From Coprobacillus sp. CAG:605 (GTDB lineage Bacteria > Bacillota_I > Bacilli_A > RF39 > UBA660): DNA of 64,000 bases. The notes beneath the pieces are model-generated. The model had not been told where the DNA came from and ran no database searches. It saw only the letters and a list, made by a program, of their open reading frames with translations. The stretch lies in contig HF998226.1 of the NCBI GenBank assembly GCA_000433255.1, positions 25,383-89,382 on the forward strand, written 5' to 3'. This document shows positions 59,102 through 64,000 of this stretch, piece by piece. Every line of letters starts with the position of its first letter. The stretch's first letter is position 1. A program made the translations under genes and the position numbers.

Positions 59102-59899
59102 ATGGATGAAGCGTTACAATATATTGATGCTAAAATAGCAGATATAAATGAAATGATAAACAAAATTATATTGGATAATATTGATAATAGAGATTATATG
59201 GCCAAAAATATATTAAGTAATCTTAGATATTTAGTAGAATATTGCTTTTTTAGAGTATATATTACAGATAAAGAAAAGAAATATGTTAAATATAGTCATG
59301 AAAATAATCAACAATCAATTAAGTATGTGAAAAGTTGTGCTAATATGAGAGAATTAAGAGCGTTACATGGTTTCTTACAAATATCAACTTCTCATTCATT
59401 GCCCAATGGCGATGGCTCATCTAGAGTATTAATTAAATATTTAAGTTATTTAATTGAATTAAAAGAATTTATGTATAAAAAATATAAAATTACTATTTTA
59501 GATAATTTATATTCTTTTCCTCTTAACGTTGAAAAAAACATGGAAAATTATTATAGACAAATCTCAAATCAGATAAAAATTACTAATTTTAATAATTCGA
59601 AAAAAGTTTTAGGAAACATGTATTATGTTAGAAAAATAAAGCCAATTATTATTGATAACAATCTTTTTTATGAAGTAACATTAAGTGAGGCTACAGACTA
59701 TATTAATAAGTTTAATCGTATTGTCGTATATTCTAAAGAAAAGATATTAGACAATTATGCCATCAAAATTTCCAGTATTGATAGAACAATACAACTATTT
59801 GAAAAAAATGTTAATATAAAAATTATAGATAGCTATAAAATAGCTATAAGGCCTTGTGAATTAAATAATTTATTCAAAAATATTTGGCTTACAATATAA
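59102..59899 (+). CDS. Hypothetical protein (265 aa), the first gene of a helicase-containing module
   Basis: ORF with a ribosome-binding site. No motif was recognised. It lies 28 nt upstream of the helicase gene. Confidence 0.5.
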   Translation: MDEALQYIDAKIADINEMINKIILDNIDNRDYMAKNILSNLRYLVEYCFFRVYITDKEKKYVKYSHENNQQSIKYVKSCANMRELRALHGFLQISTSHSLPNGDGSSRVLIKYLSYLIELKEFMYKKYKITILDNLYSFPLNVEKNMENYYRQISNQIKITNFNNSKKVLGNMYYVRKIKPIIIDNNLFYEVTLSEATDYINKFNRIVVYSKEKILDNYAIKISSIDRTIQLFEKNVNIKIIDSYKIAIRPCELNNLFKNIWLTI

Positions 59900-59927
59900 A
59901 ATTTCTTCAAAATATGGTGAATATGAC

Positions 59928-61817
59928 TTGATAATGAAATATTTAAAGGTCAACAGATACAGTTTACTAGATATTGTTGAACTAGACAATAATCGTTATT
60001 TAGATTTTAAAAAAATATTAACAAATGGCGCCAATACACATTTCATTTTGAATTTAATTGAAGAATCAAGAAAAGTTGTTATAAATAATAAACCAGGAAG
60101 CAACATTTTAAAGTACCTTTTATTTCGCCTAAATAATCAAGTTATAAAATCACAATTAAGTCTCAATGACAATAAAAAACTGTCAAATTTATATTTAAGT
60201 TATGGATCAATCCCATTCGATGAAATGCCATATGCATCATCCCTACAAAATCATAAGGTTGATATCAATGATTTACTTCAATGTATAGACAATAACGGGC
60301 GTGATGATGAGTTGTTATCTAGAAGACTTCACTATAATTCAGATAGCTTAGGAATTATATATAATAAAATAAATGAAATTGATTTACCAAGCAATGTTGA
60401 TGAATTAATTGCAAGATTTAATTCGAAAATTTATTTGCCAAAACATGAAGAAAGAAAAATAGAAAAAAACACTAAATATATATATGTAAATGGATATGAA
60501 TCAGAAACTATCTCTATTATGCAAAAATTAAGAGAATTATCATGTGATGGTTATGCAGAATATAGTAATATTTTTACAATATGGAAAGATTCTTCGGATT
60601 ATAAATTTACGGATTCCCAAAAATATGAAATATGTCAAAAGATGTTTATTAGCTCGAAAGTAGCCTTACTATATGGCTCGGCAGGGTGTGGCAAAACCGA
60701 AACAATCAAAATTATTTCTGACATATTAAAAGACAAAAATATTATCTTTTTAGCCAAAACAAACCCTGCAGTTGAAAACTTAAAAAGACGAATTGGAGAA
60801 GATAATTTTAACTTCACTTTTATGACAATTGACAAATATAAAACAAATTCGGTTGTTTGTGATTTGCTAGTTATAGACGAGTGCAGTACTGTTGATAATT
60901 ATGACATGAATAACATATTATCCCGAAATGAAATGTACAATTTATTATTATTGGTTGGTGACATATATCAAATTGAATCAATAAAGTTTGGAAATTGGTT
61001 TAGATTCGCCAAAGAATTATTACCGCCACAATGTATAAATAAATTGGATGGTACTTTTCGAACCAAGAGTCAAGTCCTATTGGACTTGTGGTCAAAAGTA
61101 CGAAATCTTGATACAGATATCGTGGAGTACTTATCAGATTATGATATGTCTGAAACATTAAATAAAAATATTTTTAATAAAGGCAGTGAAGATGAAATAA
61201 TATTATGCTTGAATTATGATGGCCCATATGGAATTAATAACATAAATAAATACTTGCAGGCTAATAATCAGAACCAAGCATATGAATGGGGTATAAACTC
61301 ATATAAAGTAGGCGATCCTGTTTTATTTAATGATTTAAATAGATTTTATCCAATTCTATATAACAATTTAAAAGGTAAAATAGTAAATATTAATAAAAGC
61401 AACGAAAAAATAACTTTTGATATTTTAATAGATATCCTAATTACAGATATTCAAGCTATGTCTATAGGACTAGAAGTAGTAGATAGATTAAATAAAAAAA
61501 CAGTTATTAGATTTAGTGTTAACGCAAATAATGATGACGACATAGAGGATAGAAAAGACTGTGTAGTTCCATTTGTTGTCGCATATGCTACTTCAATTCA
61601 CAAAGCACAAGGTTTAGAATATGAATCAGTTAAAATTGTTTTAAACGATGAAATAGGGGACGCCATTACGCAAAATATTTTTTATACAGCTATAACTAGA
61701 TCAAAAGAAAAGTTGAAAATTTATTGGACTCCTGAATGTATGAATAAAGTTATAAAAAATTTTTCAATAAAAAATAACGATGATATTAATATACTAAGAA
61801 GTAAAATTGATTTTTAA
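59928..61817 (+). CDS. SF1 helicase (AAA_30 / UvrD_C_2-type, RecD/Pif1-like) with an N-terminal domain of about 230 aa and unknown function
   Basis: Walker A LLYGSAGCGKTET, Walker B LLVIDECSTV and the C-terminal YATSIHKAQGLEYESV motif. The start is either TTG at 59928 or ATG at 59934. Confidence 0.75.
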   Translation: MIMKYLKVNRYSLLDIVELDNNRYLDFKKILTNGANTHFILNLIEESRKVVINNKPGSNILKYLLFRLNNQVIKSQLSLNDNKKLSNLYLSYGSIPFDEMPYASSLQNHKVDINDLLQCIDNNGRDDELLSRRLHYNSDSLGIIYNKINEIDLPSNVDELIARFNSKIYLPKHEERKIEKNTKYIYVNGYESETISIMQKLRELSCDGYAEYSNIFTIWKDSSDYKFTDSQKYEICQKMFISSKVALLYGSAGCGKTETIKIISDILKDKNIIFLAKTNPAVENLKRRIGEDNFNFTFMTIDKYKTNSVVCDLLVIDECSTVDNYDMNNILSRNEMYNLLLLVGDIYQIESIKFGNWFRFAKELLPPQCINKLDGTFRTKSQVLLDLWSKVRNLDTDIVEYLSDYDMSETLNKNIFNKGSEDEIILCLNYDGPYGINNINKYLQANNQNQAYEWGINSYKVGDPVLFNDLNRFYPILYNNLKGKIVNINKSNEKITFDILIDILITDIQAMSIGLEVVDRLNKKTVIRFSVNANNDDDIEDRKDCVVPFVVAYATSIHKAQGLEYESVKIVLNDEIGDAITQNIFYTAITRSKEKLKIYWTPECMNKVIKNFSIKNNDDINILRSKIDF

Positions 61818-61937
61818 TTATTATCAAATTCAGCATTTACGATACCCTAAAATTAGGTATTTACAAATATTAATTCTGCGATTATGATGGAATTGGCCAT
61901 TAAAAATCAAGAATTAAAGATAAGGAGTGATGTAAAA

Positions 61938-63296
61938 ATGTCCAAAAAAGAAAATATTAAATTCTTCATTTCGTGCAAAGTAGCTAATCTGTTTCTTTTA
62001 AGTGAAACTAGCAAGGACTATCCAGAAATCGTAAATGCAATGTCATATCATAATGGATTGCCAAGAATGTTGAATAGCGATTTTAAAAAAATGTCAAAAG
62101 ATCGCCAAATATCTTTGCAAAATGAATGGAATGATATATTTAATCATGCCCAAGGTGAATGGTCTGCTACAAAATACGAAGAGAAAAGTCAAGGAAAAAT
62201 AATTAACTGTGAATTGTGCGGCCATAAAAAAATAAGTTCAATTTTTAAAATAAAAAATTTAGAAAATCAAAAGGAATTAATAGTAGGTAGTGAATGTATT
62301 AAGTATTTTTGTGGAATCAAAAATAATTCTAAAGAAGATCGCAAGCTTTATTTGAAAGACGAAAGAGAAAAAAGAAAAGTTGCCAAAAATATTTGGTATG
62401 CAGAAAGTGTGGTTCCAGGTCTTAACAACCAAGTCAAAAGTTTTAGGAGAATACCCGATAATCATTCATTTATAATGCCAAATAAGTTAAAGAAAGAGTA
62501 TTATAGGATTGAAAATTTAATTAAAGAAGATTATGATGCAGAATTAAAAAAGCCAAAATCAAAAATAGATTGTAGGAAATTTGTTAGTACAAATTCACAA
62601 ATAACAGTCTTTAAAGAAAAATTAGAGGAGTCTAAGCAAAAGTATAAAAATGATAAATGGCAAATCACGGAAAATATAGCGAGATGGTGTTATAATAGCA
62701 AAAAGGATTCCCTAATTGAACGATTAAGTGTAACAGAAAAAGTAGATTTTACAACAGCTGATCAAATTTATGAAACCAATTATTTGCATTTTATAGTTGA
62801 AGAATTTAAGAGCTTTTTGTATTTTAACAATTTTAAGGTATTAAAAAATAATTCTATAAACTTTGAAGTTTCAAGTAAATTTAATGAAGGAATTAAGATA
62901 TTAGTTGATACAGTTGATTTTTTAAAAAAATATAAAGCAAATTTATTTAAAAACGAATATGAAAACATAAGCATAAAAGATTTATTAAGGGTTAGTAAAA
63001 TAAGCAAAGATAGCTATGACAATGCGGCATATTTGATTTGCAGAAAGTGCAGATATGATTATAAGTATCAATTTCAAAGTGCTGAAATAAATGAAATTGC
63101 CTTTAAATCTGAAAATAATATTTTAGTTTTAAAATACGCTGAATTTATCAACAAATTTAAAAACTATATTTTTAAGAAAAAAATTGATTCTAAAATGAAC
63201 AAAGAGATTGTTAATTATATTGAAGCAAATTCAGAAAAATATACTGCTGAAAATTACTCTGTGCATTTAAAAACATTTGGTATTTTTCAAAAATAG
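61938..63296 (+). CDS. Hypothetical protein with a Cys cluster (CELCGH...GSECIKYFCG)
   Basis: ORF with a TAAGGAG ribosome-binding site before the ATG at 61938. The track start at 61884 lies further upstream. Confidence 0.5.
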   Translation: MSKKENIKFFISCKVANLFLLSETSKDYPEIVNAMSYHNGLPRMLNSDFKKMSKDRQISLQNEWNDIFNHAQGEWSATKYEEKSQGKIINCELCGHKKISSIFKIKNLENQKELIVGSECIKYFCGIKNNSKEDRKLYLKDEREKRKVAKNIWYAESVVPGLNNQVKSFRRIPDNHSFIMPNKLKKEYYRIENLIKEDYDAELKKPKSKIDCRKFVSTNSQITVFKEKLEESKQKYKNDKWQITENIARWCYNSKKDSLIERLSVTEKVDFTTADQIYETNYLHFIVEEFKSFLYFNNFKVLKNNSINFEVSSKFNEGIKILVDTVDFLKKYKANLFKNEYENISIKDLLRVSKISKDSYDNAAYLICRKCRYDYKYQFQSAEINEIAFKSENNILVLKYAEFINKFKNYIFKKKIDSKMNKEIVNYIEANSEKYTAENYSVHLKTFGIFQK

Positions 63297-63472
63297 CTAT
63301 TTAGAAAAAATATGCAAGCAACACAATGTTAACTAGTGTTGTAGTAAATCCCAACTAAAAACCAATTTCCAATAAAAATGATACAAATTGTATCAAAAGC
63401 AGTAAAAAATAGTATACTTTTTTGAAAATTATGCTATACTATATATTGAAAAAAGGAAAAAGGTGAATATAA

Positions 63473-64000
63473 TGATCAGATATATTAAACTAAATAACTA
63501 TAAGTCACTTGTTGACTTTAAAGTGGATTTTATGAAAACAAAAGACACTTCAAAAAAACTAGTGCTTATTTATGGCGAAAATGGAGTTGGTAAATCTAAT
63601 TTAGCTAATTCATTTTATACATTAAATGAAACAATGAGAACTATGGCTGCCAATGAATTTGCTAAGAATTTACTTGATCAATTTAGTAAAAATGAGAATT
63701 TTAATAAAGAATCAAGCAAAGTTGCAATTAATTTTGCCAATTCAATTATTAAAGCAAATTATAAAGATACTAAAATGATAATTGATGAATATAAAACTAT
63801 TGATTCAGCAGATAATATGATTTTAGAATATGGCTTTGATATGAATGGACAAGATGGAGTTTATCGTATCGAATTTGATAATGAAAAAATAGTTTCTGAA
63901 AGACTAGACTTTACCCTTAACAAAAATATGACTAACTATTTTAATATTAATACTGATAATATGAAGATTAATGCCAACGTTTTCAAAGATAAAAAATATT
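63473..64000 (+). CDS. AAA_15/AAA_21 (OLD/ABC-like) ATPase. Only the N-terminal 176 aa are present because the window ends.
   Basis: The typical N-terminus MIRYIKLNNYKSL...LIYGENGVGKSNL (Walker A). A promoter-like TATACT lies upstream. Confidence 0.65.

Follow-up and report, generated by a model that had tools for sequence, protein, structure and literature searches.

The last 5 kb of a 64,000-nucleotide (nt) stretch of contig HF998226.1 from Coprobacillus sp. CAG:605 (the whole stretch is referred to below as the window) contain three co-directional open reading frames (ORFs), which lie directly 3' of the UDP-glucose dehydrogenase gene closing a polysaccharide locus. The intergenic gaps amount to 28 nt between ORF1 and ORF2 and to 66 or 120 nt between ORF2 and ORF3, depending on the ORF3 start. 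In the initial annotation these ORFs were described as three genes, encoding a hypothetical protein, a helicase and a Cys-cluster protein. The three ORFs are indeed present, but ORF1 and ORF2 are the halves of one gene, and the locus can with high confidence be identified as a frameshifted gene of PDC-S53, a family of candidate defence helicases, followed by an unrelated neighbour gene. The features on which this identification is based are the following:

59102-59899, + strand: ORF1, 265 amino acids (aa), deposited as CCZ89076.
59928-61817, + strand: ORF2, 629 aa from TTG or 627 aa from ATG 59934, deposited as CCZ89077.
61938-63296, + strand: ORF3, 452 aa (470 aa from the alternative upstream ATG 61884), deposited as CCZ89078.
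59102-59869, + strand: 5' part of the PDC-S53 gene, codons 1-256 of a 904-aa protein, identical to residues 1-256 of the intact protein P0001.
59869-59871, + strand: frameshift site with an extra T, TTT versus TT in the intact allele.
59871-61817, + strand: 3' part of the PDC-S53 gene, codons 257-904 and the stop, here translatable only from the internal start ATG 59934.

The two halves are matched by one and the same PADLOC profile (PDC-S53, hidden Markov model PDLC05035, 900 positions), of which ORF1 covers positions 3-252 (E 1.7e-66) and ORF2 covers positions 270-894 (E 1.1e-238). When the conceptually fused ORF1 and ORF2 product was used as a query, the intact 904-aa protein P0001 was found with 100% identity, along with more than 100 full-length relatives, each of about 900 aa. 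In comparison with the intact ORF on six contigs (L001-L006), the one-T insertion at 59869-59871 is the sole indel; within the helicase gene these contigs differ from the window by the extra T plus at most one single-nucleotide polymorphism (SNP), and the flanking genes are the same. Moreover, joining 59102-59869 to 59871-61817 yields P0001 with no mismatches. The frame that is read in the window runs into a premature stop at 59897-59899, and its product of 265 aa is composed of 256 native residues and nine others. The frameshift site contains neither a slippery heptamer nor a long homopolymer (TT to TTT), and the change is therefore taken to be a loss-of-function indel of the ordinary kind that segregates in the population. 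An intact PDC-S53 reading frame is thus missing from the window, although an intact allele exists in the same species, and the window copy is most likely an inactivated allele, in which the N-terminal part is severed from the motor. What had been considered a separate gene for a hypothetical protein encodes the helicase's N-terminal half, separated from the rest by the frameshift. As ORF1 and ORF2 form one gene, the N-terminal region of the helicase comprises about 500 aa and not the approximately 230 aa initially assigned to it.

Both alleles circulate in the species, to which the window can be assigned by its RpoB and RpoC, identical to CCZ89024 and CCZ89025. The intact P0001 is encoded on at least 12 contigs of Coprobacillus sp. 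CAG:605 with the same flanks, and its intact variants P0002-P0004 on one contig each; 18 contigs carry the exact 265-aa N-terminal fragment, and about 19 carry the 627-aa forms. The same extra T is present in two contigs from other sequencing runs (L107 and L108), each with private SNPs, and the occurrence of the split allele in independent samples with SNPs of their own indicates that the extra T is a real polymorphism. With its intact and its disrupted form, the candidate defence gene is naturally polymorphic for an on and an off state in independent metagenomes. The split form could also be regarded as a functional two-polypeptide version of the protein, or as a recoded gene, rather than as a dead allele. 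Its frequency (about 18-19 contigs, compared with at least 12 for P0001 plus the single occurrences of P0002-P0004) is in agreement with such an explanation, and so is the difference of at most one base, besides the extra T, between the window helicase gene and the intact copies, although this near-identity may merely reflect a recent mutation. The break coincides with a domain boundary predicted to follow the beta domain, and the in-frame ATG 59934, with GGTG 14 nt upstream, could allow translation to restart. However, a restart at this position would drop residues 257-277, including the nearly invariant E273, and the site has, as stated above, no slippery heptamer or long homopolymer. None of the 37 diverse members in the PDC-S53 alignment (A1, 36-79% identity to P0001) is naturally split, and shorter entries in the databases represent either fragments or this same split allele. 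A functional split form is thus considered unlikely.

ORF3 is an independent gene and not a partner of the helicase. In related taxa, homologues with 61-64% identity are found in the same slot of the chromosome, flanked on one side by the end of a polysaccharide locus and on the other by sortase/VanZ/Wzz genes; they are accompanied there neither by the helicase nor by the AbiL-like gene pair, and are followed instead by a gene of the uracil-DNA glycosylase (UDG) family. The initial annotation had proposed a genuine three-gene operon, that is, a new multi-component defence system, for which the co-directional arrangement and the close spacing of the ORFs may be taken as arguments, together with the helicase-ORF3 order, which is kept in all contigs of Coprobacillus sp. 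CAG:605. Against this stands the fact that ORF1 and ORF2 are one ORF both in the intact allele and in all 37 diverse homologues, and that ORF3 homologues exist without the helicase. Furthermore, no ORF3 relative was found within 8 kb of 80 diverse PDC-S53 genes. A promoter-like sequence, TTTACA-17-TATGAT, also precedes ORF3, which is weak evidence, since the scan is barely informative in AT-rich DNA. Taken together, a three-gene operon is very improbable, and ORF3 is treated below separately from PDC-S53.

The C-terminal part of the PDC-S53 protein is a helicase core of superfamily 1B (SF1B), in which the following features were located:

60615-61772, + strand: SF1B helicase core, aa 505-890, with Pfam AAA_30, AAA_19 and UvrD_C_2.
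60675-60698, + strand: Walker A motif, GSAGCGKT.
60876-60887, + strand: motif II, DECS.
60957-60971, + strand: motif III, GDIYQ.
61593-61619, + strand: motif V, SIHKAQGLE.
61683-61700, + strand: motif VI, YTAITR.

The Pfam matches of ORF2 (AAA_30, AAA_19, Viral_helicase1 and UvrD_C_2) begin at its residue ~234 and agree with the AAA_30/UvrD_C_2 type recognised initially. Motifs I, Ia, II, III, V and VI and the arginine finger are found across the 37 members, and the invariant residues of the core comprise G525-T532, T553/A556/N559, D592-E593, G619-D620-Q623, H833-K834-Q836-G837 and T865-R866. In a sequence search of PDB, the best matches were RecD2 (3e1s), RecD (1w36_D) and Pif1, confined to the core, and by analogy with such relatives a 5'->3' polarity on single-stranded DNA (ssDNA) may be inferred for the motor. 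PHROG 325, 'Dda-like helicase', aligns with residues 77-884 (E 1.5e-49). Among the curated families, the best match is that of NCBIfam RecD2 (TIGR01448, E 4e-38), and some homologues are named 'ATP-dependent RecD-like DNA helicase'; the protein might accordingly be a housekeeping RecD2-like repair paralogue with no role in conflict. However, only the core aligns with TIGR01448, with 131 bits against an equivalog cutoff of 500, the NCBIfam RecD match is far below its cutoff, and TraA_Ti (TIGR02768) reaches 41 bits against a cutoff of 590. Scores so far under the RecD2, RecD and TraA cutoffs indicate that the protein is not a housekeeping RecD2 and also not a relaxase helicase, so that the two competing identities named in the initial annotation can be set aside; no transfer genes were found in the window or in contigs L001-L004. 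Moreover, the closest species-representative homologue shares just 72% identity, which points to a patchy, accessory distribution of PDC-S53, and a conserved housekeeping neighbourhood was not observed. The gene is also dispensable in nature, as its frameshift allele is common and related taxa lack it in the same slot. A RecD2-like housekeeping function is therefore highly unlikely.

All 37 members are about 900 aa long and have a uniform architecture, in which the N-terminal ~500 aa are conserved throughout. This region can be divided into three parts:

59102-59581, + strand: N-terminal helical bundle predicted in the AlphaFold2 (AF2) model, aa 1-160, with invariant R42, E46, H98 and R108.
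59618-59842, + strand: beta-strand domain, aa 173-247, with strands predicted by AF2, weakly OB-fold/SSB-like, with invariant Y175, E191, K203 and Y219.
59852-60602, + strand: second helical region reaching to the motor, aa 251-500, with invariant E253, R323, N345, Q351, F372, P376, H384 and N440; the frameshift lies at its start.

The AF2 model of the N-terminal region was obtained with a predicted local distance difference test score (pLDDT) of 85.6 and a predicted template modelling score (pTM) of 0.78, and a Foldseek search with it against PDB and the viral structures of BFVD gave no match at E<=1e-3. In a Pfam census of the N-terminal regions of 22 members at E<=1, no recurrent family appeared, and the region has no Pfam match. 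The fold of the N-terminal ~500 aa is thus predicted with confidence, but nothing significantly similar is found in solved structures or in those of viruses. With Foldseek and Pfam, neither a nuclease fold nor a nuclease motif was detected in this region, in agreement with the initial description. For the beta domain, the Foldseek comparison with SSB/OB proteins gave probabilities of up to 1.0, with E-values of merely 0.01-1 and target TM of 0.4-0.57. A HEPN-like Rx4H motif (R42...H47) was considered as well, but it does not qualify as a conserved catalytic site: many members, the window protein among them, have Y, A or G at position 47.

The PDC set consists of 145 'phage defence candidates', which were selected because their members are embedded in BREX, DISARM or type I restriction-modification (RM) loci (Payne et al., bioRxiv 10.1101/2024.01.29.577857). 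In a scan of one genome per species, at least 567 PDC-S53 loci were found, distributed among Bacillota, Bacteroidota, Patescibacteria, Proteobacteria, Actinomycetota, Melainabacteria, Elusimicrobia and other phyla. Neighbourhoods were counted for 80 loci from many phyla, with two genes on either side. The 285 neighbour proteins fall into 244 clusters, the biggest of which has 7 members, and this indicates that PDC-S53 has no conserved partner gene and agrees with a single-gene system. Among the 136 immediate neighbours there are matches to type I RM specificity (S) subunits, LmuB, SoFic, AriA, PDC-S15 and PDC-S04. The position beside or within defence systems that is characteristic of the PDC set is therefore found both here, with an AbiLi-like gene downstream, and elsewhere, with other defence neighbours. 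A literature search for functional studies of PDC-S53, or of RecD-like/SF1B single-gene defences, returned none.

Full-length homologues of PDC-S53 occur in 2 of 50,697 phage records and in 5 of 72,556 plasmid records. These copies bear on the possibility that the protein serves a mobile element, such as a plasmid, a prophage or an integrative element, in its replication or maintenance and is not an immune protein. SF1B helicases commonly serve phage replication, and the PHROG 325 match, as well as the presence of homologues in two phages and five plasmids, including a MOBQ plasmid copy located right after rep genes, can be understood in this way. On the other hand, such copies are rare. In both phages the gene is placed outside the replication module, in a block divergent from the replication genes and beside a repressor, restriction-modification genes and integrases, a position which is typical of prophage-borne accessory genes; the PHROG 325 match reflects such phage-borne PDC-S53 copies. 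Around the window island no integrase, relaxase, rep gene, tRNA or att-like repeats were found, the chromosomal neighbours of PDC-S53 are variable and often defence genes, and the TraA/relaxase models remain far below their cutoffs. A mobile-element helicase is thus a rather unlikely explanation, and PDC-S53 is further discussed as a candidate defence protein.

Some of the mobile copies have arrangements of their own. The two phages, Terrisporobacter TPDSL_ph1 (L094:5149-8796) and Erysipelothrix phi1605 (L095:5149-8760), are unrelated temperate phages, yet both carry, with identical spacing, a gene for a 278-aa protein followed by the PDC-S53 homologue. The first 133 residues of the 278-aa protein of phi1605 weakly match LmuA (E 2.8e-12), and the cassette formed by the two genes may be a two-gene variant of the system. 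The L. plantarum MOBQ plasmid NZ_CP137848 (L096) has a size of about 10.6-10.7 kb, of which 2.8 kb are taken by the PDC-S53 homologue; the rep genes are followed by this homologue and then by a 502-aa 'ATP-binding protein' and a YafQ/Phd toxin-antitoxin pair.

The chance that the PDC-S53 family acts in anti-phage defence is estimated as even or slightly better than even. In the proposed mechanism, the N-terminal region would recognise a phage-specific nucleic-acid or protein cue, possibly ssDNA by means of the OB-like module, and would then license the SF1B motor. By analogy with RecD2, Dda and Pif1, this motor would move in the 5'->3' direction along ssDNA and take apart intermediates of phage replication or recombination by stripping or unwinding them. 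As no classical nuclease or other effector domain was detected, the motor itself would be the effector; alternatively, the conserved charged residues of the N-terminal region may form an unrecognised catalytic site. The specific mechanism with the motor as effector is put forward tentatively and is itself doubtful. Several points weigh against the proposed interpretation. The members of the PDC set are, according to their authors, untested (Payne et al., bioRxiv 10.1101/2024.01.29.577857), and the name PDC-S53 is absent from searchable full texts and supplements, those of the defining preprint among them. The frameshifted allele is found no less often than the intact one, which may mean that the split form is tolerated or still partly functional. 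The OB-like assignment depends on Foldseek E-values which are not significant, the 5'->3' polarity is assumed from the SF1B relatives RecD2, RecD and Pif1, and the mechanism is proposed for a protein in which no effector domain was found. In addition, the presence of full-length homologues on a few plasmids and phages, together with the extent of the PHROG 325 alignment, makes a role in mobile-element DNA metabolism possible. Finally, the poor structural model of ORF3 (described below) allows nothing firm to be said about the activity of that protein.

The start of ORF3 is most probably at 61938, since its homologues align from this M and AGGAG is present 9 nt upstream; ATG 61884 is therefore probably not the start. 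Among 5.8 billion proteins, six close ORF3 clusters only were found, and a profile search of 1.84 billion representatives gave 325 relatives at E<=1e-3, mostly of about 450 aa and aligned end to end. Distant members of the family are solitary, and their settings have nothing in common: a type IIS RM/Vsr cluster with an integrase, the space separating an ECF transporter gene from pentose-phosphate genes, small ORFs of prophage-like character, and Bacillus cereus-group megaplasmids, where recombinases are located nearby. In one of these settings, about 1.35 kb without a called gene (L101:5457-6807, and likewise in L102-L104) follow the ORF3-family gene P0277, between the ECF transporter and pentose-phosphate genes. 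The Cys-containing part of the protein is located as follows:

62208-62312, + strand: ORF3 Cys cluster, C91-x2-C94 and C120-x4-C125, with invariant E74 and W75 just upstream.

The conserved positions of ORF3 are E74, W75, C91, C94, N107, G117, C120, W250 and E279. In an alignment of 42 diverse members of the family (A5), C91 and C120 are invariant and C94 is kept in at least 90%, whereas C125 is not conserved, even in close homologues; H96 is conserved solely in close relatives. Of the CxxC...Cx4C pattern, from which a possible zinc ribbon was suggested initially, C91, C94 and C120 are thus conserved across the family and C125 is not; a metal site is plausible. The AF2 model of ORF3, built from 5 sequences, reached a pLDDT of 64 and a pTM of 0.38, with a pLDDT of ~55-66 in the Cys region, and a Foldseek search with this poor model was uninformative. 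Scans of ORF3 against Pfam, NCBIfam, PADLOC and PHROG gave nothing at the thresholds used, and a PDB sequence search with the ORF3 profile gave nothing significant. In a census over the 42 members there were scattered single matches, and 10 of the 42 weakly match one unnamed PHROG. The predicted parts of the protein are a Cys-containing module at the N-terminus, which probably binds metal, a long middle part of helices and an alpha/beta C-terminus.

Downstream of ORF3, a further gene of the island begins, which is cut by the window end:

63472-64000, + strand, continuing past the window end: 5' part of an AbiLi-like ABC ATPase gene, assigned by PADLOC AbiLi and Pfam AAA_21 on the full-length copy.

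The full-length copy in L001 encodes 446 aa (PADLOC AbiLi E 6.5e-40, Pfam AAA_21) and is followed by a 195-aa partner gene (both within L001:14370-16306), which matches no AbiLii/AriB model; the two genes may represent a two-gene system of the AbiL/PARIS type whose second component has diverged. Further along the same contig, a 536-aa protein (L001:16442-18052) has no PADLOC or Pfam match and only a weak precomputed DUF7986 flag, and L001:18326-20484 encodes an RlmA-like methyltransferase (weak mad2 match) together with a radical-SAM protein (weak pVip match, E 2e-15). The methyltransferase/radical-SAM pair varies between strains: L001 carries it, L003 carries part of it, and L002 and L004 lack it. 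In the equivalent contigs the order after it is sortase, VanZ and a second capsule locus. In the related taxa, the slot holds only the ORF3 homologue and a small UDG-superfamily gene (L007:10001-13068 and L011:10001-14024), to which fragments of B12-binding and radical-SAM genes are added in L011. As the slot content differs in related taxa, the slot is a variable hot spot.

The three-ORF region has a GC content of ~25%, compared with 32% in the first 24 kb of the window (the rpoB/rpoC part), and the polysaccharide locus is just as AT-rich, with 26%. The AT-rich accessory context led the initial annotation to suggest a defence or mobile-element function. The defence character is supported by the full-length PDC-S53 match and the AbiLi-like neighbour. 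In contrast, the mobile-element hallmarks were not found: neither an integrase, a tRNA, att-like repeats or Rfam elements nor transfer or replication genes were present at the window end and in the 22.7-kb equivalent loci, and the equivalent contigs that reach past the window end, where phage hallmarks or those of an integrative and conjugative element had been looked for, contain no integrase, tRNA or att-like repeats. The slot is accordingly considered a variable region of the chromosome, in which most genes are of the defence type. The locus is thus probably composed of two unrelated accessory genes in a variable chromosomal slot of Coprobacillus sp. CAG:605. The moderate overall confidence in this best explanation combines a high confidence in the identity of the locus with the roughly even chance of an anti-phage role of the family and the low confidence in the motor as effector.

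The helicase needs no new name, as it belongs to an already-catalogued candidate family, and the three-gene appearance of the locus is the result of a frameshift and an unrelated neighbour. What is added to the description of PDC-S53 is its uniform ~900-aa architecture across phyla, a well-predicted N-terminus without known relatives, the lack of a partner gene, and its occasional carriage on plasmids and in the lysogeny/accessory regions of temperate phages. As the intact and the disrupted form coexist in a human-gut species, isogenic-like alleles are already at hand for tests. Should an anti-phage function of PDC-S53 be demonstrated, one more helicase would join those that serve as immune effectors on their own. 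ORF3 represents a protein family that has not been annotated and that pipelines still label hypothetical. A more far-reaching possibility, which at present appears less likely than its opposite, is that PDC-S53 is a genuine single-protein antiviral system, whose N-terminal region would be a new kind of sensor (or a cryptic effector) gating an SF1B motor, and that the ORF3 family, with at least 325 clusters at 50% identity, unannotated and always solitary in variable regions, could be a further accessory or defence gene.

Among the known systems, the RecD2, RecD, Dda and Pif1 helicases share with the PDC-S53 protein the motifs Walker A, Ia, II (DECS), III (GDxxQ), V and VI and an SH3-like insertion. 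The ~500-aa N-terminus of the window protein is, however, unrelated to that of RecD2, and neither RecBC partners nor a housekeeping context accompany it. The nearest analogues of the proposed mechanism are defences in which a single polypeptide joins an accessory domain to an SF1 helicase, such as AbiO and Nhi. Nhi of Staphylococcus is a single-protein defence composed of a nuclease and an SF1 helicase. AbiO of Lactococcus similarly combines PD-(D/E)XK and SF1B in a single protein (PMC13064643). In both AbiO and Nhi, as in PDC-S53, one large polypeptide carries an N-terminal accessory region and a C-terminal SF1-type helicase, but no nuclease fold or motif was found in the N-terminal region of PDC-S53; as no tie to AbiO or Nhi was found in sequence or fold, the resemblance is architectural only. 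The PADLOC models matching at E<=1 are restricted to PDC-S53, PDC-S68, type IV RecD, PDC-M16A, GajB and IetA, with no Nhi model among them, which agrees with the initial exclusion of Hachiman, Gabija and Nhi. With regard to Gabija, the GajB models match ~55 residues (E 3e-7 and 2e-4), GajA is missing, and the downstream ATPase is AbiLi-like and separated from the helicase by ORF3. The next-best PADLOC matches, the type IV-D CRISPR RecD (E 1e-19) and PDC-S68 (E 5e-22), concern the helicase core. In both cases the motor alone aligns. No CRISPR array or cas genes are present near the window gene, and the PDC-S68 profiles are ~1200 aa long and have other N-termini. The gene at 63472 resembles the AbiL/PARIS pairs of an ABC ATPase with a TOPRIM protein in its AbiLi match with AAA_21 and in the small second gene that follows it, and differs from them in that the 195-aa partner has no AbiLii/AriB match. 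With PADLOC PDC-S53 itself, from which the window copy differs by being broken by a one-base insertion, the gene shares the coverage of positions 3-894 of 900 by its two fragments, the length of ~900 aa, the stand-alone organisation and the frequent defence neighbours.

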